Source: Planctomycetales bacterium (GTDB taxonomy: Bacteria > 4484-113 > JAFGCY01). Taken from it: a stretch of 32,000 nucleotides of DNA. Below are positions 1,368 through 24,376 of this stretch, piece by piece. Position 1 is the first letter of the stretch. Each line of letters begins with the position of its first letter. The translations under genes were made by a program, and so were the position numbers. The notes beneath the pieces are model-generated. The model was not told the DNA's origin, made no database searches, and was given only the letters and a program-made list of their open reading frames with translations. Location of the stretch: the NCBI GenBank assembly GCA_022646745.1, contig CP060262.1, positions 2,340,001 through 2,372,000 of the forward strand. Direction: 5' to 3'.

Positions 1368-2108
1368 TCAGCCGGTGCGGCGCTGCCTCTCCAGTGAGGG
1401 TTCAGTGTCGTGCCGCACGAGGTAGCCCTCATCCAGGCTGAGCATCGGGCGCTGTGGGACCTCAACCGGCGGCTCTACCCGGCTGCCGGCCCTGCGGTGC
1501 AGCAAGACGGAGAAGGCCGGCAGCCATGGCTGGGGAAGCCTGATGCCCCGCAGCTGCGGGACGGCGCGCCGGAATCGCTCAGCTAGCCTGTTGGCCAGTG
1601 CAAGCGGGGCCGCCAGCAGTGCATTGCCACAGATCAGGAGGGCTGCCAGCGAAAGCATGCCTGATTGCCACTGCGGATTGTCAGGCAGCAGCACCGGGCC
1701 GAATGCCAGCAATACCAGCAGTAGCGCAGTCGCGAGCAGCACCGATTGCCGTGGCCTTGGCTGCATGTTTATTGTCCAGCTGCGCAGCAGGTGTTCGCCC
1801 ACGACCAGTGCGAGCAGGATCACAAGCTCCAGCGCACTGCCCAGCAAGCGCTCGACGATCGGGACCGGGGGACGCAGGTGCACCATCAGCAGTGCCGTGA
1901 GCAGAAGCCAGGGCCAGGCCAGGCAGCGCCGCGAGAGGACGGTCATCAGCACGCCGGCGGCGAGGGCAAGGAAGATTGCATCACCGGTGAGCTGCAGCAG
2001 CAGTGGATTCCACAGTGAAGCTTCCGCCAGCACCAGCCTGCTGTCCGGCCACCAGGGCCGGCTGAGCAGGATGGCCAAAGCCAGCACCAGGGCTGGCAGG
2101 AATGGCAT
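1368..2108 (-). CDS. Polytopic membrane protein, unknown function
   Basis: The ORF is open from 2135, but the ATG at 2108 (MPFLPALVLALAILL...) is preceded by AGGAG 5 nt upstream. The product is very hydrophobic and Leu/Ala-rich with several predicted TM helices. Its stop lies 14 nt before the amidohydrolase start, so co-transcription is likely. Confidence 0.6.
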   Translation of the reverse strand: MPFLPALVLALAILLSRPWWPDSRLVLAEASLWNPLLLQLTGDAIFLALAAGVLMTVLSRRCLAWPWLLLTALLMVHLRPPVPIVERLLGSALELVILLALVVGEHLLRSWTINMQPRPRQSVLLATALLLVLLAFGPVLLPDNPQWQSGMLSLAALLICGNALLAAPLALANRLAERFRRAVPQLRGIRLPQPWLPAFSVLLHRRAGSRVEPPVEVPQRPMLSLDEGYLVRHDTEPSLERQRRTG

Positions 2109-2188
2109 TACGGCTCCTGTCCTGAAAGGACGCATTGCAAATAAGGTATAGGGGCTTGCAGTGAAAATATCAAGGATTACCGGCGAAC

Positions 2189-2219
2189 TTGCGGCAAATA
2201 ATCCTATACGGATTATAAT
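2189..2219 (+). promoter_or_regulatory. Putative sigma70-like promoter overlapped by a 7-bp inverted repeat, upstream of lipoprotein paralog 1
   Basis: TTGCGG (2189-2194), a 19-nt spacer, then TATAAT (2214-2219), inside an AT-rich intergenic region. A perfect inverted repeat ATAATCC-N5-GGATTAT (2198-2216) overlaps the -10 element. The spacer is longer than optimal. Confidence 0.3.
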
Positions 2220-2263
2220 TAGCTATATGACATCGTAAATATCCGCTTTACGGAGGTGATGTC

Positions 2264-3910
2264 TTGAGGCTCAGCTGTAACCACCTGATTGTCGTGATCT
2301 CCCTGCTGCTCTTTTCCTGCGGTTCCACAAGCCCTCAGGACAACGACAACCCCTCTCTCCTTGACCCGTCCGCCGGACTGCCCTCCGTCGCGGATCTGGA
2401 CCGGCTGTCTGCCACGGTTCCTGCCCAGTTGAGCGTGCTTGGCCGGGAAGCCGTCGGCAGCAGCTCGATGGCATTCATTGACAACGACGACATGCTACTG
2501 CCGGCATTGCCAGGGCAGAGCAGTTATGCGTTGTATTCGATCCATACCGGTACAACGGATGTCACGCAGGTCGGCTTCGAGCTCACTGACACCACGGTTG
2601 CGGAAAATGTCTGGATCGGCGCGCCGGATTACTACACCGGGCGCTGGAGCTTCACGCAGTTCACTGTTGGGATGAACAGCCTTGATGTAGGTGCCATCCG
2701 CAGCAGGAGCTATGCCGGCAACGTCTATATCGCGATCCTCACTCACGACGACACCTTCACCAGGGTCAAACGCTGCTACGTTGACCTGGAGGTGCCGGAA
2801 TGGCGGCGATACACCATTGACGCCACCGGCTCACCGGGAATCAGGTCGGCCATGGCCATGATTGGCAACACTCCCGGGATTGTCTATGAGCGCTATGATG
2901 GGGGCGGTACATACGAGCTGGTGATGGCTGGGACTACGTCACTGACCCCGCTCAGCCCTGCCGACTGGAACATTACCTTCATCCAGCCGGGTTTTGTGGA
3001 CCCGGTCTTCGGCCTGGACCTGATCAGCGTTGACAACAAACCGGGGATGGCAATGATGATGGACCACCTGACTCCCGGCTTAACGAATGTCTGGTACGCA
3101 CATGGCAATGTCGCGCAACCCCCCACAGGGGCAGGCTGGACCTGGAGCCATGTGGGGGTCGGTGTGGATTCGGATGAGATTTCCCTGGCAAGCGTGGATG
3201 GCAAGCCGGCCGTTGCATTCGAAAGCCGGGAAGCCAACAATGGCAATTCTATCCACTATGGCTATGCCTCACGCCCTGACCCGCAGGACAGCCTGGACTG
3301 GACGGTGGTTGTCGCCGCTGACAGCTTTGATCCGCTGTACGATTACTCAGGCATCAGGCTGTTCAATTACCTCAACCATCCGGCACTGCTTTTCTATGAC
3401 CATATTGACCAGTTCATTGAGTATGGATATGGGGCCACTTCAACACCGACCGGCCCGGCGGACTTCAGCAACGGCTACGTGGCACCGGACCAGTTCAGCG
3501 GAGAAGGTATCGCCGGAATTGAATATGGTGGTTTGCCGGTTGTGCTGTACACGGATTCATCCGGAAGCGGCCTGCATTACGCCCGCGGCACATCGGCAAC
3601 ACCCGCAGCACCTGAGGATTACAACCAGAAACATGTGATTGACCCGCGCCTTGTGGGCAACCGCATTGAGATTGTCCGGCCGCCGTTGGGCCTTGGGATC
3701 GCCTATCGGGAGGGAAGCAGCGGTTCACTGATTTATGCCTGGATTGACAGCGGTACTCCCGGTTCCGGAGGTGCCTGGCACATGGCACCGGTGGATGACC
3801 GGCCGATGAGCGGGGACATCGGTCTCGTGATAATGCAGGATGGCAACCCCGGGATCTGTTACCACACAGTCAATCCGGACGCACTGCAATTTGCACAGAT
3901 GATTCCGTAG
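2264..3910 (+). CDS. Lipoprotein, family A paralog 1: shared N-terminal module plus 7 propeller-like repeats
   Basis: TTG start preceded by GGAGGTG (2252-2258). The signal peptide ends in the lipobox LLFS-C. The N-terminal module carries VWIGAPDYYTGRWSF. Seven repeats of about 45 aa follow, of the type hydrophobic-G-x-P-[AGV]-[IVL]-x-[YF]...[YF]-[AG]...W (for example LASVDGKPAVAFES...IHYGYAS...DWTVV). It is paralogous to 4344-6008 and 22721-24376. Confidence 0.85.
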   Translation: MRLSCNHLIVVISLLLFSCGSTSPQDNDNPSLLDPSAGLPSVADLDRLSATVPAQLSVLGREAVGSSSMAFIDNDDMLLPALPGQSSYALYSIHTGTTDVTQVGFELTDTTVAENVWIGAPDYYTGRWSFTQFTVGMNSLDVGAIRSRSYAGNVYIAILTHDDTFTRVKRCYVDLEVPEWRRYTIDATGSPGIRSAMAMIGNTPGIVYERYDGGGTYELVMAGTTSLTPLSPADWNITFIQPGFVDPVFGLDLISVDNKPGMAMMMDHLTPGLTNVWYAHGNVAQPPTGAGWTWSHVGVGVDSDEISLASVDGKPAVAFESREANNGNSIHYGYASRPDPQDSLDWTVVVAADSFDPLYDYSGIRLFNYLNHPALLFYDHIDQFIEYGYGATSTPTGPADFSNGYVAPDQFSGEGIAGIEYGGLPVVLYTDSSGSGLHYARGTSATPAAPEDYNQKHVIDPRLVGNRIEIVRPPLGLGIAYREGSSGSLIYAWIDSGTPGSGGAWHMAPVDDRPMSGDIGLVIMQDGNPGICYHTVNPDALQFAQMIP

Positions 3911-3945
3911 CGTGAAGCTGCACTGCTTGGTCTTCCGGGCTGGAT

Positions 3946-4278
3946 TTACTGCGTCTGCCCATCAGGCCTTGTGCGGCCCTGGCCTTCTCCACCATTGCGT
4001 TTCGGTGCCAAGCGGTCCGGTCCGCGCCGCCCGTCCGGCATGCTATCAGGGGGCCTGATCGGGCCGCGGCCATCCTGCGCTCCGCGGCCACGCTATTCCA
4101 GCAGTTCCCTCAGGATGCGGGCAGAACTTTCCGAGAACATATGTCCCGTGGAAAGTGCACTTCGCACAATGTAAACGGCAAAGCATCTCCCATGCAGGCA
4201 CCAGCCTTGCAATGCGTGTAAATCTCGGGGTCTGGAGATGTGTCCAGGAGTAACTCTATTGGGTTGTTTCAATTGCAA
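3946..4278 (-). pseudogene. Decayed duplicate of the 3' part of gene 6018-6683, with a premature TAG and an internal deletion
   Basis: 3991-4117 aligns without gaps to 6081-6207 (offset 2090 bp), and the core 4021-4100 matches 6111-6190 at 74 of 80 nt. In the frame used by gene 6018-6683, this copy reads ...ILRELLE-TAG-RGRGAQDGRGPIRPPDSMPDGRRGPDR..., against ...FLKELLE-R-RGRGAEDGRGPIRPPDGMPDGRRGQDR... in the intact gene. About 66 nt present upstream in the intact gene are missing here. There is no equivalent of the N-terminal TM segment. Confidence 0.55.
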
Positions 4279-4293
4279 AGCATTGGATATAAT
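4264..4293 (+). promoter_or_regulatory. Putative sigma70-like promoter upstream of lipoprotein paralog 2
   Basis: TTGTTT (4264-4269), an 18-nt spacer, then TATAAT (4288-4293). The block GGATATAATTA resembles GGATTATAATTA upstream of paralog 1, which fits duplication of the promoter together with the gene. Confidence 0.3.
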
Positions 4294-4343
4294 TAAAAGG
4301 TTAATTGATGTCCAAAATATCTGAATTTGCCTAGGAGAGTATC

Positions 4344-6008
4344 ATGCGTTGTTTCCACCTGCTACTGCTGGGCTGCATCATGCTTGGAGCTTCCTGTGCA
4401 AGTAATGCCGGGCTGTCCCGGCAGAGTACTCCGGATCCTGCGGTGGAGAGCCAGATTCTCCCGGACCGTCTTGCAATTCCCTTCCCCGATGACTCACGTG
4501 ATCTGTCAACTGTGCCACTCAGGCTGGAAGTAGTGGGTCGTGACACCTACGACCGCGGTGGACTGGCAGGCGATGACAACGATGACCTGCTACTGCCAGC
4601 CATGCAGGCTCAGATGAGCTTCGGGATTTACCGACTGCATCCTGGCCGCTTCCCGTTTTCGGAAATCGGGTTGGAATTGCAGGATACAACGCGGCCGGAG
4701 GGCATCTGGATCGGGGTAGCGGACTACTTCACTCATCGGTGGCAGTGGACGCAATACACCGTGGGAATGACGACCCTGGATTGCAGCGGCTTAGCCCAGA
4801 TCGGACCGGCAGGCAATACCTACCTGGCAATCCTGGCCTACGACGACACCTTGACACGGGTCAAGCGCTGCTACATCGACCTGCAAGTGCCTTCCTGGAA
4901 CGGTTACGAGATTGACAGCAGCAACACGCCCGGGGTGCGCAACGTCATGGCGCGCTTTGGCAACAAGGTCGGCATCCTGTATGAGGCAGGTGATGGCGCG
5001 GGCGGACAGGAACTCCGATTTGCCACGCACAACCCGCTGATCCCGACCCAGCCCTCCGACTGGACCGTCACAGAGGTCTACAGCGGCTACCTTGAGCCGG
5101 TTATCGACATAGACCTGGACAGCATTGGCAGCAATCCCGGGATGGCCATGCTGATCACGGATGCCGTCCCAGGCAAGACGGATTTGTGGTATGCCTATGC
5201 CTCCACGTCAAACCCGGCGGATGCGTCTGCCTGGAAGTGGACCTCGGTTGGTGTCGGTGTTGACAGCGACGGCATGGACCTCACGGTTGTCAATGGCAAT
5301 CCGGTGCTGGCCTATGAGGCAAATGAGGGGGGGCCTGGCCATACGCTGCGCTGTGCCTTCAGCAGCCGGCCGGACCCGCAGGTCAGCCCTGACTGGGTCA
5401 ACACGGTGGCCTGGCAGGATCCAGGCCTGAGCGGGGACTATTCGTCCATCCATGTCTATCCACTGGTCAATGGACTGGCTCTGCTGTTCTACAATGCTGC
5501 CAACCAGCATCTGGAGCATGGCTACTATGAAGGGGTGCTCCCGCCTGCCGGTCCCAGTGAATTCACCATCGGTGATGTTGATACGGAACCCCTGCTGGGG
5601 CAGCTCAATGCTGGCATCAGCTTCAATAACTCCTCGAGCTGTCTCTATACCGATCCGGCAACGGGAGTACTGCTGTATGCGCATGGCACCAAGCTCAGCC
5701 CGTTGTCACCGGCAGACTTCGAACATCAGCACGTTGTGGATGAAGCCACCGTGGGAGAGAGCCTGGCCGTGATCAATCTGCAGAGTGGCCTGGGAGTTGT
5801 ATACCGGGAAATGGATGGCAGTACGGTGCGCTATGCCTGGACGGAAGGTTACCCGGTGAATTCCGGAAACGACTGGTACATCCTGCAGGTGGATGACCGG
5901 CCGACGATGGGCGATATCAGTGTTTCGACACTTCAGGACGGCCGGACCTGTATCAGTTATCACACTGTCTTTCCGCCGGCTTTGCAGTTCGCCGTAATGG
6001 TTCCCTGA
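4344..6008 (+). CDS. Lipoprotein, family A paralog 2: shared N-terminal module plus 7 propeller-like repeats
   Basis: AGGAG lies 7 nt before the ATG, and the signal peptide ends ...MLGAS-C. A 94-residue block (IWIGVADYFTHRWQW...GILYE) matches paralog 1 at 52 of 94 positions by hand count. It has the same seven-repeat architecture, ending ...PPALQFAVMVP against ...PDALQFAQMIP in paralog 1. Confidence 0.85.
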   Translation: MRCFHLLLLGCIMLGASCASNAGLSRQSTPDPAVESQILPDRLAIPFPDDSRDLSTVPLRLEVVGRDTYDRGGLAGDDNDDLLLPAMQAQMSFGIYRLHPGRFPFSEIGLELQDTTRPEGIWIGVADYFTHRWQWTQYTVGMTTLDCSGLAQIGPAGNTYLAILAYDDTLTRVKRCYIDLQVPSWNGYEIDSSNTPGVRNVMARFGNKVGILYEAGDGAGGQELRFATHNPLIPTQPSDWTVTEVYSGYLEPVIDIDLDSIGSNPGMAMLITDAVPGKTDLWYAYASTSNPADASAWKWTSVGVGVDSDGMDLTVVNGNPVLAYEANEGGPGHTLRCAFSSRPDPQVSPDWVNTVAWQDPGLSGDYSSIHVYPLVNGLALLFYNAANQHLEHGYYEGVLPPAGPSEFTIGDVDTEPLLGQLNAGISFNNSSSCLYTDPATGVLLYAHGTKLSPLSPADFEHQHVVDEATVGESLAVINLQSGLGVVYREMDGSTVRYAWTEGYPVNSGNDWYILQVDDRPTMGDISVSTLQDGRTCISYHTVFPPALQFAVMVP

Positions 6009-6017
6009 GCCGGGTTC

Positions 6018-6683
6018 TCAGTTTCCGCTGCGGCTGCCAGGAGCGTCCTCAGGCGGCGGGTTGCGATCAGCGCCGGAACCACCATTACGCTGCGGAGACA
6101 TTCGATCCTGTCCGCGCCGCCCGTCCGGCATGCCATCAGGGGGCCTGATCGGGCCGCGGCCATCCTCTGCTCCGCGGCCACGCCGCTCCAGCAGTTCCTT
6201 GAGGAACTTGCGCTGGTCGAATTCAGGTCCCTTGGGCAGGACCTGCACACCCTGGCGGCTCATGCGCACGATGAACTTCTCGGCAATCAGCACATGCATG
6301 TGCCCGTTCATGAATGACAGCGGTTCATTCTCCCCGCTCTTGAGAGATATTTCCGGTGGACGGCGTTCGTGGTCAGGCCCTTCCACCGTGTAGCTTACAT
6401 TCAGTCCATCAGGAAGGTCGGGCAGCTTGCGGCCATTCTCGCCGACGGCGTAGCCATCCTGTTCACGCAGGACACCCAGTTCGATGGAGAGATTGCCCTG
6501 CTGGTCCTCGCTGATGGACAACGGCCGTCCCGCCAGCCGGATCGCACGCCGCTCAAGCCTGACGCCGAGTCCGTCCTTGCCACCTTCGGAATCATCCAGC
6601 GCACCGAACAGGACGAACAGCGACCAGAACACGAGCGGGATCACCGCCCACATGAGCTTCCGGTTGAACAGGAAGATGTCCAT
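6018..6683 (-). CDS. N-terminally membrane-anchored protein with an Arg/Gly/Asp/Pro-rich C-terminal tail, unknown function
   Basis: 221-aa ORF with one N-terminal TM helix (MWAVIPLVFWSLFVLFGAL), a soluble domain of about 130 aa and a low-complexity tail. It converges on 4344-6008 with a 9-nt gap. Its 3' part is the source of the relic at 3946-4278. Confidence 0.65.
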   Translation of the reverse strand: MDIFLFNRKLMWAVIPLVFWSLFVLFGALDDSEGGKDGLGVRLERRAIRLAGRPLSISEDQQGNLSIELGVLREQDGYAVGENGRKLPDLPDGLNVSYTVEGPDHERRPPEISLKSGENEPLSFMNGHMHVLIAEKFIVRMSRQGVQVLPKGPEFDQRKFLKELLERRGRGAEDGRGPIRPPDGMPDGRRGQDRMSPQRNGGSGADRNPPPEDAPGSRSGN

Positions 6684-6792
6684 GCACTGCCTATCGTACT
6701 ATGCCGGCGCCCGGCTGGGCTCCTGCAATATATGAGTGGCTTGCCCGGCGCACGGTTTCAGGGTTCGCGGAATTCGCTGCTGACAGGGTAGA

Positions 6793-7230
6793 ATGCTCCA
6801 GATGCGCCTGATTGTGACCATCCTCTGGAGCATTGCCGCGCTGTGCTGGGTTCCCTGGCTGCTCGTGCTGCTGCGCCTGCTGGTGGACCTCGCCAGTGGA
6901 ACGCCGCCGCTGGAGAGCGGTTACCTGCCGCTGGTTGTGCAGGGGTTGTGGCCGCGCTGGCAGGTTGTCGGTCCCTGGTACATCCACTCCTGGTTCCCGG
7001 TCAGCGCCTTCCTTGGCTGCGCACTTTCAGCCGCAGGCTGGCGGGTGTACTGGGTAAGCGAGGGGTACCGGCTGACCCGGCCGCTGGCAAAGGTCGTGCT
7101 TAGCATCCTTGTGCCGCCCTACGCGGTGTTCCTGATGTACGACGACGCGGTCCGCCGCCACAATGCACGCGAGACCGAGCTGGCGCATGAGTCTGAGGAT
7201 GCCCGCCTGCGGCTGGAATCACGCTCATAG
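6793..7230 (+). CDS. Small membrane protein, unknown function
   Basis: 145-aa ORF with 3-4 hydrophobic, Trp-rich segments and a charged C-terminal tail. An alternative ATG lies at 6802. It sits 56 nt upstream of lipoprotein 7287-9368 on the same strand. Confidence 0.5.
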   Translation: MLQMRLIVTILWSIAALCWVPWLLVLLRLLVDLASGTPPLESGYLPLVVQGLWPRWQVVGPWYIHSWFPVSAFLGCALSAAGWRVYWVSEGYRLTRPLAKVVLSILVPPYAVFLMYDDAVRRHNARETELAHESEDARLRLESRS

Positions 7231-7286
7231 CCTTCTTTGTTGATAGGATTCCTGGACTGGTTTGAATTCAGCTTTCGGAGTAGTCG

Positions 7287-9368
7287 ATGCGGACTCTTTA
7301 CTGCCTTGTTTTGCTAATGCTGCTGGCTGGCACCTGCCTGTCCGCATCCTGCTCCGGCCAGGGAAAGGCATCCCCGCAGCCGCGGTTGATCGTGCCCGGC
7401 AGCCCGCAACTTGCCAGTCCCGCTGAACTTAAGCAGCGGACAGTGTCCTCCACATTCCCGTTCTTCCGCCAGGCCAGTGATTTTCTGCCTGGTGCAACAG
7501 CGCGCACGCTGCCCGGACTGGCCCTTGGACAGCTCATCTTCCAGCCGGACCTCGATGGCGGCGGCAGCGGGAATGGTCCAGCATGGGCAGTTTATGGAAT
7601 CACGCTGGCCGACTTCAGCGGGCCGGACGAGATCACCCTGGACTGGGCGAGTGCTCCGGCAGCTTCCGATGCCTATTTCGGGGTTGCCAACTTCAGCAGC
7701 AAGCGCTGGGACTGGCGCTCGGCTGCGAACGTCTCACTTGTCACGGACACCATCAACGCTGACCACATCAGTCCGACCGAGGTGCTGTACATTGCCGTAC
7801 TGCTGACTGGGACTGATGAGGCGACACTCAACTGGGTCCGCGCCGGTGGCAACATCGCCCCGCTCGTGACATTCGACGCTTCTGTGCGCGGCGGCTTCGG
7901 CAGCCTGACAAGCACTCTGGTGGCCAGTGGGGTTGACCCCGAAGGCACCCCGGTCAGCTTTGCGTTTGATGTGTACGGCAGCAGCAGCTTCACGGACAAC
8001 GGTCCAAGCGGCATCGTGGCGGACGTGCTGTACGACTCCATCGGGGCCTACCATCCAGTCGTGCGGGTGACGGACGGCGATGGTGGCATGACCGAGGAAT
8101 CCATCACAATCGGGGTTGGCTGGGTGCACAGCTATGGCCAGTCCGGCTATGAGGGCCTGAACGCCGCCACGCGCTATGTCGGTGGAGCGCTGCTGGCGGC
8201 CGGCATCACCAATTCCTGGACCCCGGCATTCGACCGCGCGCTGGCCGCAGCCTGGCAGCCGAATGGCAACTTCGCCAATGGCAACAACTTCGGCAATGCG
8301 ACTGCCTCCAGCGAATTCACGCGCCTGGCAACCAATGAGAACAACTTCGTGATGCTCGGCGGATTCACCGCGGAGCCACCGGACTTCAAGACGGACCATT
8401 TCGTGGCACTGGTCAGCTCCACGAACCTGGTCATCTACCAGAAACTGATCGGCACTGCTGAGTATGAAACCGGACTGGACGTCGCACTGGATTCATCTGC
8501 CAACGCTGTTGTGGTCTGTGGGTATGACAACGGTGGTGAGATGGACCTGCTGGTGCTGAAGATTGATTCCGGGGGCAGCGTGGTGATGCAGAAGCTGGTG
8601 ACCGGCACTGGAGCTTTCCTGGATCCGCAGTTGCAGCTGGACAGCGCTGGCAATATATACATCAGCGCCTTGATGGACCGCTCTCCGGATCCGGGCAGGG
8701 ACATCGTGGTGATGCAGCTTGACCCGACCGGTGTATTGCAGTGGGCCAGGCGCCTGGTTGTTCCGTTCAGCGCAGAACTGCGCGGGATGATTGCGGATGA
8801 ACAATCGCTTTACGTCAGCGGCTCGATCCACGCCGAGATGCCGGGTGTGACGGATGGTGCCTACCTTGCATGCATCGGCCATGATGGAAGCTTCAAGTGG
8901 AACCACCGGCTTGGTCTTGGCAATCCGAACTCAAGCTGGTCTCGGATGGCAATCGACGAACGGAATGGCGACCTGCTGCTGTGCGGGATCACATTCAACC
9001 AGGGAGTCGGCGACTCGTCCCTGTGCGGCCTCATTTCAAGGTACTCCTCCAGCGGTGCGCTGCTGTACATCTCGGCCTACAACCAGCCGAACATCAACAA
9101 CCAGTTCCTGGACATCGATTACGACGGGGACGGAGGATTCTTCATCGTCGGGAATGGCGAGGGGGTGACCGGTGAATTCTATGAACCGGCCTACACGGAA
9201 ACCACCGACACCCTGGCCTGGGAGACGATCAGCCCGCTGGTCGCGGACACTGCCGCAAGCATCAGCAACTGGGATGGAGCGCTCGCATCCAACGATGTCC
9301 CGCCGCCGGTGATCGACTCGCCAACCGGCACGACGGATGCGCTCGCGATGCGCTGGTTCCAGCCATGA
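7287..9368 (+). CDS. Lipoprotein with the family A N-terminal module, one PKD-like domain and a C-terminal beta-propeller-type repeat region
   Basis: The signal peptide has Cys lipobox candidates (LLAGT-C / LSAS-C). The module motif AYFGVANFSSKRWDW matches YLGVANFSEGRWDF and WIGAPDYYTGRWSF in the paralogs. A PKD-like stretch reads ...VSFAFDVYGSS...YHPVVRVTDGDGG. Repeats follow of the type DSAGNIYISA / GGSVVMQKL / DGSFKWNHRL, typical of beta-propeller (SBBP-like) repeats. Confidence 0.85.
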   Translation: MRTLYCLVLLMLLAGTCLSASCSGQGKASPQPRLIVPGSPQLASPAELKQRTVSSTFPFFRQASDFLPGATARTLPGLALGQLIFQPDLDGGGSGNGPAWAVYGITLADFSGPDEITLDWASAPAASDAYFGVANFSSKRWDWRSAANVSLVTDTINADHISPTEVLYIAVLLTGTDEATLNWVRAGGNIAPLVTFDASVRGGFGSLTSTLVASGVDPEGTPVSFAFDVYGSSSFTDNGPSGIVADVLYDSIGAYHPVVRVTDGDGGMTEESITIGVGWVHSYGQSGYEGLNAATRYVGGALLAAGITNSWTPAFDRALAAAWQPNGNFANGNNFGNATASSEFTRLATNENNFVMLGGFTAEPPDFKTDHFVALVSSTNLVIYQKLIGTAEYETGLDVALDSSANAVVVCGYDNGGEMDLLVLKIDSGGSVVMQKLVTGTGAFLDPQLQLDSAGNIYISALMDRSPDPGRDIVVMQLDPTGVLQWARRLVVPFSAELRGMIADEQSLYVSGSIHAEMPGVTDGAYLACIGHDGSFKWNHRLGLGNPNSSWSRMAIDERNGDLLLCGITFNQGVGDSSLCGLISRYSSSGALLYISAYNQPNINNQFLDIDYDGDGGFFIVGNGEGVTGEFYEPAYTETTDTLAWETISPLVADTAASISNWDGALASNDVPPPVIDSPTGTTDALAMRWFQP

Positions 9369-9392
9369 AAAAGGGCAGGCCGTGGCCTGCCC
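9368..9392. terminator. GC-rich hairpin between convergent genes; the U-tract is present only on the minus strand
   Basis: GGGCAGGCC (9373-9381) pairs with GGCCTGCCC (9384-9392), realistically 8 bp with a 4-nt loop. On the minus strand the hairpin is followed by TTTTT (complement of 9368-9372), so it suits termination of gatB transcripts. On the plus strand there is no U-tract. Confidence 0.5.
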
Positions 9393-9542
9393 TGTCGGTG
9401 CCGCGGCTTTGGGGGAATGCATTTACTGCGGCACCTTCTGCCATAGATAGACACCGCGTGATCGGGCTGTGATACGTTTTTGCGCAGGAAATCCTCAATA
9501 TTCCGATTTGCAGCAATCAGGCCATTCCAATCAGGCTATTGC

Positions 9543-10985
<1,443 letters not shown>

Positions 10986-11117
10986 GTGACTATTTTAAGG
11001 CAGAGTCTGGACTGCAATTCAAGGCTTAAACCCACTGCAAACCTGTACAGCAGTCCACAAACGTGTTGGTGCCGCAGTTATATCCCTCGCAGCATACATG
11101 CTTGCAGAGGAGTCAAC

Positions 11118-11882
11118 ATGACCAGATTCATTGCTGTTTTCATTCTTTCAATAATGATTACCGCCTTCGCTTCCCTGAGTGCCATCGCTTCCGGACCGTC
11201 CAGCCCCGAAGAGGCCATCGTTGCCCTGAAGGATGGCAACGAGCGCTTCGTTGACGGACGCAGTGCACATCCGAACCTCGACCTGTCCCGCATCCGCGAC
11301 ACCAGCGAGAACGGGCAGCACCCCTTTGCCACCATCATCGGCTGCTCCGACAGCCGCGTACCGCTCGAGCTGGCGCTCGACCAGGGCATCGGCGACCTGT
11401 TCATCATCCGCGTGGCCGGCAATGTCTGCAGCACGGATGAGATCGGCAGCATCGAGTACGGCGTGGACCACCTCGGCACCCCGCTGATGGTCGTGATGGG
11501 CCATACCCATTGCGGTGCCTGCACCGCAGTCGCCCAGGGCGCGGAAGTACACGGCAGCATCCCGGCACTGGTGGCCCCGATCGGCGACGCAGTCAAGGCC
11601 GTCAAGTCCACCAACCACGAGCTTGAAGGTGACGAGCTTGTGGCGGCCGTTGTCGAGGAGAACGTCTGGCAGTCCATTGAGGACCTGCTGATGAAGAGCC
11701 CCGACACCCTCAAGCATGTCAACAGCGGCACCACCAAGGTGATCGGCGCGATCTATGACATTGAGACCGGCGAAGTGCGCTGGCTCGGCGAGCACCCGAA
11801 ACAGGCAACCATCATCGCGGCTGCCGGCGGTGGCAATGGACACATTGCCAGCGTGGATGGCCACGGCGACGGACACCGTTAA
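11118..11882 (+). CDS. Beta-class carbonic anhydrase with an N-terminal signal peptide (copy 1 of 3)
   Basis: The ATG at 11118 is preceded by GAGGAG (11107-11112); the longer ORF from 10932 is rejected. The hydrophobic leader is MTRFIAVFILSIMITAFASLSAIA-SG. Beta-CA zinc and catalytic motifs GCSDSRVP and GHTHCGAC are present. The C-terminal tail is His/Gly-rich (GNGHIASVDGHGDGHR). Confidence 0.92.
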   Translation: MTRFIAVFILSIMITAFASLSAIASGPSSPEEAIVALKDGNERFVDGRSAHPNLDLSRIRDTSENGQHPFATIIGCSDSRVPLELALDQGIGDLFIIRVAGNVCSTDEIGSIEYGVDHLGTPLMVVMGHTHCGACTAVAQGAEVHGSIPALVAPIGDAVKAVKSTNHELEGDELVAAVVEENVWQSIEDLLMKSPDTLKHVNSGTTKVIGAIYDIETGEVRWLGEHPKQATIIAAAGGGNGHIASVDGHGDGHR

Positions 11883-11898
11883 CCTGCTAAGCAACCGG

Positions 11899-11933
11899 CG
11901 GCCGGCCATGGAGGGCCGGCCGTTTGCTTTTCT
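11899..11933 (+). terminator. Intrinsic terminator after beta-CA copy 1
   Basis: A 9-bp GC stem, CGGCCGGCC (11899-11907) pairing with GGCCGGCCG (11914-11922), closes a 6-nt loop. It is followed by TTTGCTTTTCT (11923-11933). Confidence 0.7.
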
Positions 11934-12003
11934 GGGGAGGCTTGTTGACTATTGCAGTCCTGCCGGATAATGTTGCTTCCCAATCGCACCTGCAGGAAAG
12001 AAA

Positions 12004-12750
12004 ATGAAGTCCAACTTCCTCCTCATCATCGTCATGCTTTGCAGCTGCCTGGCCTCAGCGGCCGTCGCTGCAGACCTGCCCAGCCCGCAGGAAGCACTGG
12101 CCAGCCTGGTTGATGGCAATGCCCGCTTCGTGGCCGGCGAAAGTGCGCACCCGCACCTGACAATAGATCGGGTGCTGGAGACCGGTAAGGATGGCCAGCG
12201 TCCCTTTGCGACTATCATCGGCTGTTCCGACAGCCGTGTACCGATCGAGCTGGTGATGGACCAGGGGCTGGGTGACCTGTTCATCATCCGTGTGGCCGGC
12301 AATGTCTGCAGCACGGACGAGATCGGCAGCATAGAGTACGGCGTTGACCACCTCAATACCCCGCTGATGGTGGTGCTGGGGCATACGCACTGCGGTGCCT
12401 GCACGGCGGTGGCCACGCATGCGGAGGTGCATGGCAGCATCCCTGCGCTGGTGGCCCCGATTGGCACCGCAGTGGCGGAAGTGCTGGACGCCCAGCCTGG
12501 CCTTGAAGGTGATGCACTAGTGGAGGCTGTGGTCGAGGAGAACGTCTGGCAGTCCGTCGAGAGCCTTCTGAAGCGCAGCCCTGATACGCTCAGGCATATT
12601 GAGGAAGGTAGCCTGATGGTGGTCGGCGCGGTCTACGATATCGAGACGGGCGTGGTTGAATGGCTTGGCGAGCACCCGCAGCAGTCTGAGATCCTGATGG
12701 CGATGGCAGACGGCAGCACACTCGCTGAGACGGCTACTTCTCGCGACTGA
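12004..12750 (+). CDS. Beta-class carbonic anhydrase with an N-terminal signal peptide (copy 2 of 3)
   Basis: AGGAAAG precedes the ATG. The leader is MKSNFLLIIVMLCSCLASAAVA-AD. It has the same GCSDSRVP and GHTHCGAC motifs. The segment 12274-12354 matches 11394-11474 at 77 of 81 nt. Confidence 0.92.
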   Translation: MKSNFLLIIVMLCSCLASAAVAADLPSPQEALASLVDGNARFVAGESAHPHLTIDRVLETGKDGQRPFATIIGCSDSRVPIELVMDQGLGDLFIIRVAGNVCSTDEIGSIEYGVDHLNTPLMVVLGHTHCGACTAVATHAEVHGSIPALVAPIGTAVAEVLDAQPGLEGDALVEAVVEENVWQSVESLLKRSPDTLRHIEEGSLMVVGAVYDIETGVVEWLGEHPQQSEILMAMADGSTLAETATSRD

Positions 12751-12798
12751 TCCGAACACAAGCTACGTTGGTTCCGGCCTTGGACAGTCTGCAATGGT

Positions 12799-12829
12799 CT
12801 GACCACTGACGACTGACCACTGACTACTG
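12799..12829. repeat. Short tandem repeat, a 14-nt unit present about 2.2 times
   Basis: CTGACCACTGACGA (12799-12812), then CTGACCACTGACTA (12813-12826), then CTG. It lies in the spacer between beta-CA copies 2 and 3. Confidence 0.6.
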
Positions 12830-12846
12830 TTCTATACTCTTCACCG

Positions 12847-13551
12847 ATGTTTCCCTCAGCATTCTCCTCATCCATCCACTTCGCCCCGGACGGCTGGGCC
12901 GGCACGGCTTCTGATCGTCCTTCGCCCACGGAGGCCCTGCGCCTGATGCAGGAGGGCAACCGCCGCTTCCTGGCCGGTCAGAGCGAGCTGGCGGAGCATG
13001 ACCTGGCGCATATCCTTGAGCACAGCCGCAAGGGCCAGCAGCCACTGGCCACGGTGCTTGGCTGCTCCGACAGCCGGGTGCCGCTGGAGCTGGTGCTCGA
13101 CCAGCACATCGGCGACCTGTTCGTGATCCGTGTCGCCGGCAACGTGGTGCGCACCGCCACGCTTGGCACTATCGAGTACGGTGTGGATGCACTCAAGACT
13201 CCGCTATTGGTCGTGATGGGCCATACGCATTGCGGCGCCTGCACGGCGGTTGCCAACGGTGACGAGTTGGGAGGCCATATCCCGCAGTTGGTGGCCCCGA
13301 TCGGCGATGCGCTGGCCGCGGTCAGGCAGCGGTACTCCAGCCTGGAGGGCGAGGCCCTGCTCAACGCCGTGATAGAGGAGAACGTCTGGCAGAGCATCGA
13401 GGACATGCTGCGTCACAGCTCAGTTGTGCGTGGCCTTGTACGGAATGGCTCGCTCAAGGTGAAGGGCGCGGTTTACGACATCGAAAGCGGAGCGGTCAAA
13501 TGGCTCGGCCCGCATCCGCGCCAGAATGTGATCATCGCGGAACTGGGCTAG
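12847..13551 (+). CDS. Beta-class carbonic anhydrase without a recognisable signal peptide (copy 3 of 3)
   Basis: 234 aa carrying GCSDSRVP and GHTHCGAC. The N-terminus MFPSAFSSSIHFAPDGWAGTASDRPSP lacks a hydrophobic core. This is the only in-frame ATG upstream of the conserved ALRLMQEGNRRF helix. No Shine-Dalgarno sequence is visible. Confidence 0.88.
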   Translation: MFPSAFSSSIHFAPDGWAGTASDRPSPTEALRLMQEGNRRFLAGQSELAEHDLAHILEHSRKGQQPLATVLGCSDSRVPLELVLDQHIGDLFVIRVAGNVVRTATLGTIEYGVDALKTPLLVVMGHTHCGACTAVANGDELGGHIPQLVAPIGDALAAVRQRYSSLEGEALLNAVIEENVWQSIEDMLRHSSVVRGLVRNGSLKVKGAVYDIESGAVKWLGPHPRQNVIIAELG

Positions 13552-13658
13552 GGCAGGCCGGACAAGAGTCAGGCCATCTGGGAACTGACAGCAGGTTTAG
13601 GGCCAGCCCGGCCTACACCTCAGTTTGCCGCAGGAACACAAGGCCTGTACCATGCTCC

Positions 13659-15485
13659 TTATTCCCTCAGCCACTCCAGTACATTGCAGAGCATGTCGCA
13701 GCGCAGGGTCGGCTCCCCCGTGTTGTCAGGATCCTGCAGGATCTCGACCTCCGTCCAGGCATAGCCGATCACCCAGCAGCGCGCCGTGCCGCTGGAGCTC
13801 AGGTCGCAGAATGGCGGATAACCGTTGAATCTGCAGGGTGCGGTGGTGCAGCCCCAGCTCACGAGTGCGCTGACATGCCCAGGATCCTCAGGGTAGGGTG
13901 AGAAGAACAGGCCGGGCTGGAATCCAGGTGCCGCACACATCCCGCCTAGGCCCTCACGTGGCATGATGCTGGAATTCCAGGCCCGTGTGCTGAACTGCGC
14001 ATCTGCGGGAACGCGGATCGCCCATGGTACGCGCCCGCCCGCACCGGCGTAACGCTCACCGTCATCACGGCCCATGCCGTCGTCAAACTCCGGGTCGGTC
14101 TGGAATGAGCCGACGAGGCTGACGGTCGACACGGGCAGGCTGATCCCGGTTGCCAGCAAGGGGTCGGGCCAATAGGGCAGGCCGACGGCGTCGGTGAACT
14201 CCAGATCGTTGCCAGGCAGCACCTGCGTTACGGGCTCGAAGCCCAGTTCCTGCCAGCTCAGGCCCTTGCTGACCCCCATGTTCTGGCTCATCACGAGCAT
14301 GTTCATCCCGCTTTCCAGCAGGGCCATCACGTCGGTCTGCTCAGCATACCCCCAGCTGTTGTAAGCGAGGCTGCGGTTCGGTCCGCCGCGCCCCCCGCAG
14401 TACCAGACCACGCTGTCGTAGCCACCCTCCAGCAGGGTGCTGCTCAGGCCCGGTTCATAGAGGAACCAGTCAAAGTCTGCACCGATGCGCTGCAGGTCGA
14501 ATCTCACAGCGATGTAGCCGATGTAATCGCTGGCATCGCCATTGTTGACGAGCGCCAGCCGGCCTCCGGAATAGACGGGGCGTGGCAGATCAGGAAACAG
14601 GTCCCCGAAGTAGATCATGTGAAAGCTTTCGAGATCCTTTGAATAGCAGAAGCTGTTGATATCCCAGGAGATTTCGCCGAGCACCCCATTCACCGAGTCG
14701 TAGGACTGGACTCTGTAGTCATACCAGCCCGGCAGTTCCGGCTCATCGCGGAATTCGAAGCGCAGCGGCTCAGCCCCACCGCCGCTGCCCTCGCTGAGCA
14801 GCATGCTGTGCTGCGCGGAATCCGCCCCCGGCAGGAAATCCGGCAGGAAGGTCTTGTCCTGCGGTCCCTGGCGGAAGACGCGGTAGCCATCGAGCCTGTC
14901 ACCGAAGTTGGCGGCGATCGGCGTGAGGTCCGCCAGGTTGAGAAGGCCGTTGCCATCTCCGTCAATCTGGGCCAGCCTGCGGTTGAGCGCCGGATCAGCC
15001 ACACTGTCATCCGGGACCGTGGCGTGGCCCTCGCGTGTGGAGATCCGTGTGTATTGCACGGTGGAATTGAAGTACTGTCCGAGCGGCGTGATGTCGGCGA
15101 TGTCTACGACGCCGTTGAGATCGTAATCCCCGGGGTGCCGGAAGGACCAGCTCAGATTGATTCCCTGCGGTGGTGCTCCTCCCTCGCCGTCGGGATCGTC
15201 AAGTTCCGCGAGTACGTCATACACTCCGCTGCCGGAGTACAGTGAGTAGTCTGCGGCACTCGTGGCCTCCCGCTCCTGCAGGCGCGCAAGCTCCAGCAGC
15301 AGTGCCATTTCCAGTTCCGGGTAATCCGTGACGAATCGCCGCTTCTCTGCGGGGCGGACGGCGTGAGTTTGCCCGGATGACGAGGAGCAGGCGCCGGCAG
15401 TGGACAGCAGTAGCAGAGCCATGATCAGCATGAGTCCAGTACCAGTCGTAACATATCTGTTGGCTTGCTGATGGGATCGTTTCAT
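13659..15485 (-). CDS. Lipoprotein, family B paralog 1: dockerin-like double Ca-loop module plus a shared C-terminal domain
   Basis: The ORF is open to 15572. The ATG at 15485 gives MKRSHQQANRYVTTGTGLMLIMALLLLSTAGA-C, a lipobox; an alternative ATG lies at 15506. Two EF-hand-like loops are present, GDYDLNGVVDIADITPLGQYF and DGDGNGLLNLADLTPIAANFG, followed by LDGYRVFR. The C-terminal domain shares VVWYCGGRGGP, MNMLVMSQN, SWGCTTAP and CWVIGYAWTEVEI with 17977-19845. Confidence 0.8.
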   Translation of the reverse strand: MKRSHQQANRYVTTGTGLMLIMALLLLSTAGACSSSSGQTHAVRPAEKRRFVTDYPELEMALLLELARLQEREATSAADYSLYSGSGVYDVLAELDDPDGEGGAPPQGINLSWSFRHPGDYDLNGVVDIADITPLGQYFNSTVQYTRISTREGHATVPDDSVADPALNRRLAQIDGDGNGLLNLADLTPIAANFGDRLDGYRVFRQGPQDKTFLPDFLPGADSAQHSMLLSEGSGGGAEPLRFEFRDEPELPGWYDYRVQSYDSVNGVLGEISWDINSFCYSKDLESFHMIYFGDLFPDLPRPVYSGGRLALVNNGDASDYIGYIAVRFDLQRIGADFDWFLYEPGLSSTLLEGGYDSVVWYCGGRGGPNRSLAYNSWGYAEQTDVMALLESGMNMLVMSQNMGVSKGLSWQELGFEPVTQVLPGNDLEFTDAVGLPYWPDPLLATGISLPVSTVSLVGSFQTDPEFDDGMGRDDGERYAGAGGRVPWAIRVPADAQFSTRAWNSSIMPREGLGGMCAAPGFQPGLFFSPYPEDPGHVSALVSWGCTTAPCRFNGYPPFCDLSSSGTARCWVIGYAWTEVEILQDPDNTGEPTLRCDMLCNVLEWLRE

Positions 15486-15607
15486 CTGTTCAGTGATCTG
15501 CCGCATCAAGCAGATCATATCCGGAGTTTCGCCTGGGCAGACTGCACAATCGGCCTTCGATTCTGACTGCACACATCAATTGATCTAATTCACGATGTTG
15601 CTTGATA

Positions 15608-17140: not shown

Positions 17141-17845
17141 CTACAGCTTCGCCAGCTCATCGCGCAGCAGCCTGATGTTCAGCAGGCGCTGGCCGACGTC
17201 ATAGCTGCCAAGGATACCCAGCACGGCGAATGCCATCACATATGGCGTGAGCTGGGCCCAGGCGGTCAGCACGCTGGCATTGCCTCCGAACAGTCCGGTC
17301 TGGTACAGCACGAAGCCCAGCATTGCCAGCATCATCGCGAAGCTTGCCATGCTGGCCAGCCAGCGCATGCGCAGCAGGTGCCGTGGTTCCGCCAGGTACC
17401 AGTCCAGCTCTGAAGCGTACAGCCGCACCCAGTCCTTCAGTGACACTGGTGCTGGCCCGAGGAACAGGATCCAGGGCCAGGCAACGTACCGCCTGATGTC
17501 TGGCAGCTGCCCGTGGCCGATGGCAACCCTGTGGATGAAGTCGCTTTGATCCATGCGCTGCTGGATGCGCTCGCGATATGTCCGGCTGCGCCATTCCATG
17601 CACGCGAGCAAGGCGATACACAGTACCGTCCAGCCGATGAACTGCAGCGGGGGGAACTGCATTGCATTGCCCCCGGAGGCTGCGAAGTTGCCAGTGACGA
17701 TCATCACCAACCCGATCATGTACATCATCCCGCTGATCATGCGCGGGCTGTAGCCGGAACGCTGCTCCAGCATCCGGTTGAGTTCTGCCAGCAGCTGCTC
17801 ACTGTATCCGCCTCCCGAAAGTCCGGCATCCGCCTGACCGGCCAT
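17141..17845 (-). CDS. Polytopic membrane protein, family C paralog A
   Basis: The ORF is open to a GTG at 17917, but that codon directly abuts a terminator U-tract. The ATG at 17845 has GGAGGTG 4 nt upstream and gives 234 aa. It is paralogous to 20190-20900 (YRERIQQRM against YREKLRDKV; SELDWYLAEPRHLLRMRWL against SHLDWYLGKPDRVIRIEWL). Confidence 0.65.
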   Translation of the reverse strand: MAGQADAGLSGGGYSEQLLAELNRMLEQRSGYSPRMISGMMYMIGLVMIVTGNFAASGGNAMQFPPLQFIGWTVLCIALLACMEWRSRTYRERIQQRMDQSDFIHRVAIGHGQLPDIRRYVAWPWILFLGPAPVSLKDWVRLYASELDWYLAEPRHLLRMRWLASMASFAMMLAMLGFVLYQTGLFGGNASVLTAWAQLTPYVMAFAVLGILGSYDVGQRLLNIRLLRDELAKL

Positions 17846-17922
17846 GCTGCACCTCCATGCACAACTGTTGTACATCCTGCAGGCCTTGGCGGTTTCGTCG
17901 GCAAGGGTGGACTGCACAAATG

Positions 17923-19845: not shown

Positions 19846-20109
19846 AAGTATCCTCCTGTGCCGGGGATGAGCCCCGGCCAGTTCGCAGCCGGTAGAACTG
19901 CTCCCCAGAATGTAACAGGATTCAGGATTCTCCAAAAGGCACAATCCTGCCGAAATCAGGGGAAACAGTCGTGCTGAGGATACACCTGCGACGAGCATTG
20001 TGTAGTTTTTCCGAAATCCCAGGAAATCACTTCACAAAGTGTTACCTGCACAAGTCAGCGGAAAGCTGTCCATGTACAACTGGACTCAACGCAGCTAACA
20101 GCATGGTGC

Positions 20110-22720: not shown

Positions 22721-24376
22721 ATGCCCGCAAGATTGACTGCTGCATTGCTATTGACCATGCTGGCCTTGCTGGCTTCCTGCTCATCCTCAGGCTCACCGGC
22801 CCCACCTGCGCCCAAGCCTGAGTTTCCGACCCAGGACCTTCTGCCGCAGGTGAATGAACTGGATTCCCTGCATTCCACATCCAGCCTGAACCGCACGGTG
22901 ATCCTCGGCAAGGACACCTACGTACGCTCCAGCGGCTGCACCGAGCAGCCAGGCGGTGAACTGCTGATGGAGTCCGCGGCGGGCTCGGTCTGCTGGGCGA
23001 TCTGGCAGCTGCCGGACGAGCCGGAATTCCTTGACTCGGTGTTCTTCGACATCATTGACGCGCTGGGCGAGGGCGGCTACCTCGGCGTTGCCAACTTCAG
23101 CGAGGGGCGCTGGGACTTCAGCGGTCCCTATACTGACCAGACCACGCTTGAGTTTGCACCGGACTGGCAGGCATCACCGGGCGGCTTCCACTACTTCGCG
23201 GCCCTCGTGCATGACGGGGCTGCCATCGAGATGGCGCAGCTGCTGTGCTATTTCAACGATGGCTGGCAGGTGGTGGTTGTCTCGGCGATGCATGAGGCGG
23301 GTGTCAACTCTTCAATTGCCAACATCGACGGGCATCCCGCGATCGCCTACCGCCGCAATGAGGACGAGGCCCTGCGCTATGCATGGAGCTCAACGGAGAC
23401 GGGTGCGGAAGGTGATGACTGGACGGACATTTCCATTCCGGCCCTGTTTACGGCGGGGCTGTACTGCAGCCTGGCGGATGTCAACGGGCGCCCGGCGATC
23501 AGCTTCCGCGGCGAGACGGACAACTTTGGGTACGAACTGCACTACGCGATCAGCAACAACTCCAGCGGCAGTGCCTCCGGCAACTGGAATGTAATCGTGC
23601 TTGATCCGACGGAGGATGTCGGCTACCACACCAGCCTCGCCATGATCAATGGCCGCCCGGCAATTGCGTACAGCACACAGGCCGGGCAGGATCTGTTCTA
23701 CATGCGCAGTGCAAGCCTGTACGGCGATGCGCTGGAGGACTGGTCAGTGCCCGTGGAGGTGGACCATGATGGTGCCGGTGATCTCGGCGCTGACTGCAGC
23801 CTGGCGGAGGTGGATGGCCGTCCCGCCGTCAGCTACTTCGCCAATGGCACGCTGCGCTACAGCTGGAGCAGCACGGCATCAGGAGAGTCGGGTGCCGACT
23901 GGAACATCCGCGTGATTGACAACGAATCCGCCAGCAATGTCGGCTTCTACTCCAGCCTGGCGGTGATCAACGGCAAGCCCGCGATCAGCTACTACGACCA
24001 GCTGCATGCCGACCTCAAGTTCGCCTGGAGCAGCACCGCCGGAGGGCAGATTGCCGCTGACTGGAACACTATGGAAATCAGCGGCCCGCCGATCGCCGGC
24101 CAGTACAGCAACCTGGTGGAACTGGACGGGCAGCCGGCGGTCTGCTATTACACCGTTGGAGTGCTCAGGGACCTGTTGTTCGACCAGGCGGTCCCGGCGG
24201 CAATCCCTGAGGAATGGTCCTGGGGGCCCTACGTGACCGTGGATGGCAATGATGGCCTGATGCCGGCTGATGTCGGACGCAACTGCAGCATGGCGGTTGT
24301 CAACGGCCGGCCCGTGATCTCATACTATGACGCGACCAGTGAGAGCCTGAAGTACGCAGTGCGCGTGCTGCCCTAG
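22721..24376 (+). CDS. Lipoprotein, family A paralog 3: shared N-terminal module plus a very regular 7-bladed propeller
   Basis: AGGAG lies 7 nt before the ATG, and the leader carries the lipobox LLAS-C. The module motif is YLGVANFSEGRWDF. Seven clear repeats follow: IANIDGHPAIAYRR..LRYAWSS; LADVNGRPAISFRG..LHYAISN; LAMINGRPAIAYST..LFYMRSA; LAEVDGRPAVSYFA..LRYSWSS; LAVINGKPAISYYD..LKFAWSS; LVELDGQPAVCYYT; MAVVNGRPVISYYD..LKYAVRV. Confidence 0.87.
   Translation: MPARLTAALLLTMLALLASCSSSGSPAPPAPKPEFPTQDLLPQVNELDSLHSTSSLNRTVILGKDTYVRSSGCTEQPGGELLMESAAGSVCWAIWQLPDEPEFLDSVFFDIIDALGEGGYLGVANFSEGRWDFSGPYTDQTTLEFAPDWQASPGGFHYFAALVHDGAAIEMAQLLCYFNDGWQVVVVSAMHEAGVNSSIANIDGHPAIAYRRNEDEALRYAWSSTETGAEGDDWTDISIPALFTAGLYCSLADVNGRPAISFRGETDNFGYELHYAISNNSSGSASGNWNVIVLDPTEDVGYHTSLAMINGRPAIAYSTQAGQDLFYMRSASLYGDALEDWSVPVEVDHDGAGDLGADCSLAEVDGRPAVSYFANGTLRYSWSSTASGESGADWNIRVIDNESASNVGFYSSLAVINGKPAISYYDQLHADLKFAWSSTAGGQIAADWNTMEISGPPIAGQYSNLVELDGQPAVCYYTVGVLRDLLFDQAVPAAIPEEWSWGPYVTVDGNDGLMPADVGRNCSMAVVNGRPVISYYDATSESLKYAVRVLP

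Follow-up and report, generated by a model that had tools for sequence, protein, structure and literature searches.

A predicted beta-sandwich module beside the lipid anchor of lipoproteins with varied bodies

The window analyzed here is a 32,000-nucleotide stretch of contig CP060262.1 (assembly GCA_022646745.1, Planctomycetales bacterium; positions 2,340,001 to 2,372,000 of the forward strand). It carries four genes for lipoproteins, named A1 to A4 hereafter, that share an N-terminal module placed ahead of propeller bodies. In agreement with the initial annotation, which had read these four open reading frames (ORFs) as lipoproteins, each hydrophobic leader ends in a lipobox-like Cys, and the core motif that it described for the module is found in 4/4 proteins (WIGAPDYYTGRWSF, WIGVADYFTHRWQW, YFGVANFSSKRWDW and YLGVANFSEGRWDF). 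The entry motif that it placed ahead of this core stands in part: the acidic form DNDD occurs in A1 and A2 only, and conservation at this place across the family is limited to L-x-L-x-S. The genes and their parts are as follows, in coordinates of the window and with scores on a hidden Markov model (HMM) of the family where these are given.

2264..3910, + strand: A1 lipoprotein, 548 aa, TTG start; same gene call in locus L007
2264-2320, + strand: A1 signal and lipobox (Cys19, lipobox LLFSC)
2372..2806, + strand: A1 tether and module, residues 37-181, including a degenerate tether motif; family HMM positions 4-145, 117 bits
about 2807-3907, + strand: A1 seven-bladed propeller
4344..6008, + strand: A2 lipoprotein, 554 aa
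4344-4397, + strand: A2 signal (Cys18, lipobox LGASC)
4479..4901, + strand: A2 module, residues 46-186; family HMM 123 bits
about 4902-6005, + strand: A2 propeller
7287..9368, + strand: A3 lipoprotein, 693 aa, with module, PKD-like domain and a different (SBBP-like) propeller
7287-7352, + strand: A3 signal (Cys22, lipobox LSASC)
7419..7844, + strand: A3 module, residues 45-186; securely matched core, residues 97-183
7854..8120, + strand: A3 divergent PKD-like domain, residues ~190-278, motif VRVTDGDGG
8400..9164, + strand: A3 propeller region with partial SBBP/LipL53 similarity, residues 372-626 (NF047494)
22721..24376, + strand: A4 lipoprotein, 551 aa
22721-22780, + strand: A4 signal (Cys20, lipobox LLASC)
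22838..23272, + strand: A4 module, residues 40-184; beta-sandwich, residues 57-179
23273-24373, + strand: A4 seven-bladed propeller, 28 strands in the AlphaFold2 model

A1 aligns with A2 (42% identity, E 1e-152) and with A4 (22% identity, E 3e-17) over the full length. Given that A1, A2 and A4 align end to end, they are, as judged from their sequences, ordinary full-length paralogues composed of the module and a seven-bladed propeller. When A3 is compared with A1 or A4 by BLASTP, a 14-residue motif alone is aligned (E 0.003-0.05), as would fit the view that there is no shared module and that the window holds three ordinary paralogues together with a chance motif in A3. Profile comparison argues against this view. 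An HMM built from the other three modules matches A3 residues 100-174 with an independent E value (i-E) of 5.6e-7 among 363 six-frame ORFs, and a family profile of 44 sequences, A3 not among them, scores residues 97-183 (87 residues, profile positions 49-133) at 48.9 bits (i-E 2.8e-14). On the family profile, the A3 orthologues P0253 (70% identical) and P0254 (38%) reach 44.9 and 36.1 bits, and in hundreds of clusters the same module is followed by PKD domains and by unrelated bodies. The scores of A3 and of its orthologues, together with the partner domains of the family, refute the reading as a chance motif, which we hold to be almost certainly wrong. The N-terminal third of the A3 module is divergent, and the stringent profile covers only ~85 residues of this module. 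The family profile finds exactly four module matches in the window, the next-best ORF scoring 6 bits. Thus, the similarity on which a common N-terminal module had been proposed for all four proteins holds at the profile level, while the accompanying statement of four copies with different bodies was too strong for the window, where three are full-length paralogues and A3 alone has a different body.

The body of A3 had been described as a PKD domain followed by SBBP-like propeller repeats. Scored with a PKD profile made from sequences of the family, the putative PKD domain of A3 reaches 18.8 bits (conditional E 2e-7), and its orthologues reach 24.5 and 29.2 bits. Residues 190-278 have no match to PKD, PKD_4 or K319L-like_PKD of Pfam, and a PDB sequence search with A3 returned the PKD domain of ColG weakly (E 0.53). 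The description is therefore kept with two restrictions: the domain is PKD-like but divergent and Pfam-negative, and the SBBP assignment relies on a partial match of the propeller to NF047494 (E 8.3e-10), which at 37.9 bits does not reach the equivalog cutoff of 400. In its order of domains, A3 would conform to the family pattern of module, here a divergent PKD-like domain, and then propeller.

The extent of the family was determined by an exhaustive HMMER profile search of 1.84 billion cluster representatives, which found the module in 1,580 clusters (50% identity) at E<=1e-3, in 868 at E<=1e-10 and in 82 at E<=1e-30. A word-indexed homologue search with the four-module alignment gave no return, which we ascribe to the search method and not to absence; a word-indexed search with full-length A4 as query gave 312 relatives. 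We read the architecture from a sample of 185 module proteins, of which 166 have an intact N terminus. Each of the 185 proteins contains one copy of the module, with a median projected start at residue 39, and a lipobox is found upstream of it in 135/166 proteins with a strict pattern and in 163/166 with a relaxed one. Six proteins have a late module start, and since several of them hold an internal lipobox, we consider these starts to be mis-called. The lipobox Cys is separated by about 42 residues from the first conserved glycine of the sandwich, and this stretch contains a tether motif with the consensus LPxLPxxR (L 85%, P 90%, L 58%, P 71%, R 62% in the 185 proteins), located ~20 residues past the Cys and immediately ahead of the beta-sandwich. 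In A1 to A4, only degenerate forms of the motif occur. The architecture of the family thus follows one rule, namely a signal with its lipobox Cys, a tether of ~40 residues, one module, zero to seven PKD domains and a variable body. The HMM scan for copy number and domain partners that the initial annotation had proposed accordingly gives a single copy per protein, with varied bodies, in a family of this size.

Pfam and NCBIfam scans of the four window proteins gave no match to the module, and no match was obtained in Pfam at E<=1 for 45 family modules searched one by one, with CBM (carbohydrate-binding module), BACON, DUF1735 and Cohesin families included. Searched against PDB sequences, the module profile, A4 and A3 had no significant match; the best match of the module profile, the WD40-like look-alike eIF3i (E 0.57), was rejected as due to chance. 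That the module could not be placed in any named family therefore remains true: no Pfam, NCBIfam or PDB sequence model recognizes it. The AlphaFold2 model of the A4 module, built on a 45-sequence alignment, is all-beta with ten strands (predicted local distance difference test score, pLDDT, 91.9; predicted template modeling score, pTM, 0.82), the tether (e.g., 22838-22880) being a low-confidence part. With this model as query, Foldseek against the PDB returned CBM29-2 as the top match (E 6e-5, template modeling score, TM, 0.53-0.56), CBM86 at TM 0.62, and CBM6, CBM36, CBM35, CBM16 and domain III of Cry toxins. The top 16 matches are all CBM29, CBM86 or CBM6, with TM values of 0.49-0.62 and E values of 6e-5 to 1e-3 for the top matches, and among viral models the jelly rolls of phage tail fibres and tailspikes match best. 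Identity within the structural alignments is 7-18%. A clean mapping to a characterized domain, by which the proposal would have fallen, was not obtained, the likeness found by Foldseek being one of fold only. As modeled, the module is an autonomous beta-sandwich of ~125 residues that folds as a CBM-like jelly roll; it represents a new sequence family on a known fold and is not a member of any described CBM family. In the family alignment, conserved loop and aromatic positions are W92, W/Y95, D/N125, Y/F126, an invariant W131 and S152-P-x-G155.

In members of ~520-560 residues, the module is joined to a seven-bladed propeller by a 2-residue link with a conserved GW, and no PKD domain intervenes. 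PKD domains are present in 56/65 longer members, a PQQ-like propeller serves as the body in 5/65, and a PcRGLX-like or PL4-like domain was found in 1/65. Single loci add to this range: seven PKD domains follow the module in L036, CarboxypepD_reg or transthyretin-like repeats follow it in L012, and in L024 (11693-13987, - strand) it is fused to an S15 X-Pro dipeptidyl-peptidase (Peptidase_S15 and PepX_C), suggesting that it also carries enzymatic bodies. Some bodies of about 1,090 residues have no Pfam match. No glycoside-hydrolase family was seen among the partner domains, and a type IX secretion system (T9SS) sorting domain was present in 0/65 module proteins scanned. Propeller homologues from Flavobacteriales/Bacteroidota and other groups have no module and end in a T9SS sorting domain. 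The combination of the module with different bodies, as put forward by the initial annotation, is hence seen at both scales, as two propeller types in the window and as PKD, PQQ-like, transthyretin-like and S15 partners across the family.

The full-length AlphaFold2 model of A4 (pLDDT 89.7, pTM 0.83) has 28 strands after the module, forming seven four-stranded blades, and the seven repeats noted earlier in the sequence correspond to these blades both in the model and in their conservation. The repeat reads S-L-A-x3-G-x-P-A-I-x-Y ... L-x-Y ... G-x3-4-(D)-W, and its G...W loop resembles a degenerate Asp-box. Among 61 full-length relatives, all residues conserved at >=60% fall in the repeat motif, and a search for catalytic residues in the propellers of these relatives found no conserved blade-specific polar residue, for which reason a shared catalytic site is unlikely. 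The nearest structures to full-length A4 in Foldseek are glycoside hydrolase family 33 (GH33) sialidases of Bacteroidales (4fj6, 6mrv and 8feb; E about 1e-10), at a root mean square deviation of 16-20 A, a high value that points to a different domain arrangement. The propeller alone matches a polysaccharide lyase of family 42 (PL42; TMt 0.61) and YncE (TMt 0.70). Pfam BNR_2 was returned for a few homologues only, below threshold.

In scans of a genome collection, A4 alone gave no match, and an alignment of its orthologues gave four close relatives only. The closest genomes are the metagenome-assembled genomes (MAGs) "UBP7 HKST-UBA03" (80% identity for A4), "HKST-UBA01" and "bacterium AC1.30" and one "Planctomycetales" MAG; those of HKST-UBA03 and HKST-UBA01 originate from saline activated sludge (PMC8495973). 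Genomes currently assigned to UBP7 in GTDB have 0.83-1.39 Mb and a guanine-cytosine content (GC) of 36-53% (PMC11382960), whereas the GC of the window is about 61% and contigs of AC1.30 measure 1.88 and 0.68 Mb. Because of this misfit, the UBP7 label of the closest MAGs probably no longer applies, and an argument against a CBM role built on the scarcity of glycoside hydrolases reported for UBP7 (PMC9765126) was dropped for the same reason. The window is ordinary chromosome, with genes for an amidohydrolase, gatB, a cytochrome c peroxidase, panBCD and an M24 peptidase; Rfam and tRNA scans of it found nothing. The ORF 31056-31622 reads by eye as elongation factor P (EF-P). GC is 0.56-0.58 at 2001-6000, 20001-22000 and 28001-32000 and 0.61-0.64 elsewhere in the window, and the dip at 2001-6000 spans the A1 and A2 genes.

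The region 2264-9368 is syntenic with positions 2370-14226 of locus L006 (AC1.30, JAWLAZ010000001.1), where four module genes (633, 554, 693 and 682 aa) sit between the amidohydrolase gene and gatB. At least two further module genes lie on another AC1.30 contig. The AC1.30 locus also holds a 777-aa gene, the window has three module genes at this place, and the A1/A2 pair corresponds to a single 554-aa gene in AC1.30; the gene content of the lipoprotein cluster is fluid. Between A2 and A3, the ORFs 6018-6683 (- strand) and 6793-7230 (+ strand) encode small, Pfam-negative membrane or low-complexity proteins, and their counterparts in AC1.30 (221 and 142 aa) and L007 lie at the same place. A scan of metagenomes with a degenerate DNA pattern yielded 34 loci, of which 23 are real and 11 are chance matches without the module. 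Module genes cluster, with two or three per locus in 6/23 real metagenome loci and at least four on the 56-kb contig of L024 and L041. An all-against-all BLAST of the neighbouring ORFs of 30 loci revealed no conserved partner or machinery gene and no neighbour of the SusC/D type, the recurring neighbours (panBCD, M24 peptidase, EF-P) being accounted for by synteny of close relatives only.

A second lipoprotein family in the window is encoded by 13659-15572 (- strand), 17977-19998 (- strand) and 26793-29849 (+ strand). Its members have a membrane-proximal, dockerin-like double F-hand with the motif GDYDLNGxVxxxDxTPxG ... DGDGNGxxxxxDxxxxxxxFG, for which the match to Pfam Dockerin_1 narrowly misses the threshold (E 0.005 in the window and 1.8e-4 in L017). 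The first two genes are paralogues with a common C-terminal domain (32% identity, E 2e-37), and the third combines the same N-terminal segment with another body of about 800 residues. In L011 and L017, the region ahead of the dockerin-like segment looked cohesin-like by eye, which Pfam did not confirm. Two further genes, 17141-17917 (- strand) and 20190-20948 (- strand), encode paralogous, Pfam-negative multi-pass membrane proteins (23% identity, E 2e-14) with the common motif DWYLxxP...RxxWL, and one of them has a dockerin-like lipoprotein gene immediately upstream. The window also contains three tandem beta-class carbonic anhydrase genes (10932-11882, 12004-12750 and 12847-13551, all on the + strand; Pro_CA E about 1e-40 each), the first with an N-terminal extension of ~130 residues, as well as a hexapeptide-repeat ORF (21048-21674, - strand) that by eye resembles a gamma-class carbonic anhydrase; the carbonic anhydrase dosage is locally unusual.

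Based on these observations, the reading that we favor, with middling confidence, is that the module serves these lipoproteins as a pedestal or anchoring unit close to the membrane. It would form a rigid common base beside the lipid anchor and hold a variable, mostly non-catalytic head off the membrane, at a reach that would be set by the PKD domains. An anchoring or positioning role fits the strict coupling of the module to the lipoprotein N terminus (163/166). PKD stalks of up to seven domains and the replacement of the T9SS domain point to an extracellular location, and we infer that a lipobox followed by the module stands in for the T9SS sorting domain on homologous passengers. Given that the modeled fold is that of glycan-binding jelly rolls and that loops are conserved, the module may in addition keep the ability to bind carbohydrate, the simplest and most plausible ligand being a glycan of the cell's own envelope. 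Several points weigh against a pedestal. The modeled fold is a CBM-like jelly roll and not Ig (immunoglobulin)-like as in BACON and DUF1735; PKD domains already give spacing, so that a pure spacer would be partly redundant; the conserved S152-P-x-G155, D/N125-Y126 and W131 suggest a specific binding site and not a passive strut; and conservation is the same for module and propeller family-wide (31% vs 31%) and similar among orthologues (65% vs 62%). The proteins could also face the periplasm.

The binding-site argument is taken further if the module is a true CBM or lectin for an external glycan, present in a substrate, a biofilm matrix or another cell surface, in which case both the module and the propeller would be binding units and the proteins would act as adhesins or in substrate capture. 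All of the best structural matches are indeed glycan-binding jelly rolls (CBM29, CBM86, CBM6/35/36/16, Cry domain III and phage tail-fibre tips), the conserved loop and aromatic residues include W92, W/Y95, Y/F126, W131, S152 and G155, and full-length A4 comes closest to Bacteroidales GH33 sialidases, in which an N-terminal CBM precedes the propeller. We nevertheless consider this role rather unlikely, although a serious candidate. No CBM family matches the module in sequence, its partners are almost never carbohydrate-active enzymes, and no SusC/D-like or glycan-use neighbours were found in the 30 loci. Furthermore, true CBMs occupy N-terminal, C-terminal, internal and tandem positions, whereas the module is always single and adjoins the lipid anchor, where an external ligand would reach it least easily.

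The strict coupling to the lipoprotein N terminus, whatever the body, is also what would be expected if the module and its LPxLPxxR tether were a sorting or retention determinant, by which a lineage-specific machinery flips lipoproteins to the surface or holds them there, with a function corresponding to that of the T9SS C-terminal domain or the Bacteroidota lipoprotein export signal. The conservation of the tether motif across the family speaks for this possibility, as does the use of a T9SS sorting domain by homologous passengers elsewhere, the two devices being mutually exclusive in our sample. The other large lipoproteins of the window, those of the dockerin-like family, lack the module, however, which is therefore not a general export tag. 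In addition, known lipoprotein export signals are short peptides and not 125-residue domains, no machinery gene is conserved in the neighbourhood (30 loci), and the four window proteins themselves have only a degenerate tether motif; a sorting function appears improbable. Less probable still, and by a clear step, is that the module acts as a cohesin-like receptor which docks the neighbouring dockerin-like lipoproteins and thereby assembles membrane-anchored complexes. Cohesins are beta-sandwich jelly rolls of about 150 residues, both modules are membrane-proximal, the Dockerin_1 score is just below threshold, three dockerin-like lipoprotein genes lie inside the 32-kb window, and similar genes are found no more than about 10 kb away from module genes in L001, in L002 and in the independent metagenome loci L011, L017 and L024. 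Yet the top 50 Foldseek matches include no cohesin, none of the 45 modules matches Pfam Cohesin at E<=1, and module loci such as L003-L006, L008, L009 and L012, among others, have no dockerin-like gene. The co-location may reflect two abundant surface-protein families, and lipid anchors on both partners reduce the need for docking. Were docking nonetheless to occur, it would amount to a cohesin-dockerin-like system that combines a non-cohesin fold with lipid anchors to build heteromeric surface complexes.

With at least 1,580 clusters and no Pfam or NCBIfam entry, the family merits a database entry and a binding test, although it should be no great surprise to a specialist. A profile of the module would annotate thousands of "hypothetical proteins" and provide a domain boundary for structural and binding work. 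In an uncultured and poorly known GC-rich lineage, the module appears to organize a large share of those proteins that are lipid-anchored and probably exposed at the surface; should its role lie in sorting or docking, this would point to an undescribed mechanism of surface display.

Compared with known systems, the bodies have counterparts of their own. LipL53-type SBBP propeller lipoproteins of Leptospira (NF047494) resemble A3 in being lipoproteins with a propeller that partly matches, while A3 adds the N-terminal module and the PKD-like domain and, as seen from its score, remains far under the cutoff for that type. GH33 sialidases with an N-terminal CBM have the same order as A4, an N-terminal beta-sandwich followed by a propeller of the BNR/Asp-box type. 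Their catalytic propeller has six blades, an Arg triad and a Tyr/Glu nucleophile, whereas the propeller of A4 is seven-bladed, and its conserved polar residues all belong to the repeat motif. The T9SS sorting domain PF18962 is likewise a small beta-sandwich that sets the surface attachment of the same kind of passenger (PKD and propeller), and its function may be equivalent to that of the module. PF18962 sits at the C terminus, has no sequence relation to the module and is a substrate that the T9SS recognizes and cleaves, whereas the module is N-terminal and comes with a lipid anchor.

For the module itself, jelly-roll CBMs (CBM29-2 of Piromyces NCP1, CBM86 of Roseburia Xyn10A and CBM6/35/36) and Cry domain III have the same two-sheet jelly-roll fold and a size of ~125-140 residues, and the modeled structure of the module comes closest to a type B/C CBM. 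The module differs from them in having no detectable sequence similarity (8-18% identity when aligned by structure), in its fixed position at the lipid-anchored N terminus and in being almost never found on carbohydrate-active enzymes. BACON, DUF1735 and the N-terminal domains of SusE/F resemble it in another way, as N-terminal beta-sandwiches that follow a lipoprotein signal in single copy and precede varying C termini. They are Ig-like, have about 80-100 residues, are restricted to Bacteroidota and often occur in polysaccharide utilization loci (PULs) with carbohydrate-active enzymes; the name BACON records an original prediction of carbohydrate binding. The module, in contrast, is a predicted jelly roll from another, uncultured lineage, with no PUL context and no match to PF13004, PF19190 or DUF1735. 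Because the sequence test failed for each of them and carbohydrate-active enzymes are almost never its partners, we did not file it under CBM, BACON or DUF1735. N-terminal beta-sandwiches of Bacteroidota that are linked to a lipoprotein signal, with varying C termini after them, have been proposed to be membrane-bound spacers (PMC11216935). By analogy, the module probably works most like such an N-terminal spacer or anchor domain of lipoproteins, and may be regarded as a lineage-specific analogue of the BACON/DUF1735 spacers of Bacteroidota. If it is a pedestal, the principle of a base with interchangeable heads that has been proposed for Bacteroidota would extend to an unrelated fold and an unrelated lineage.

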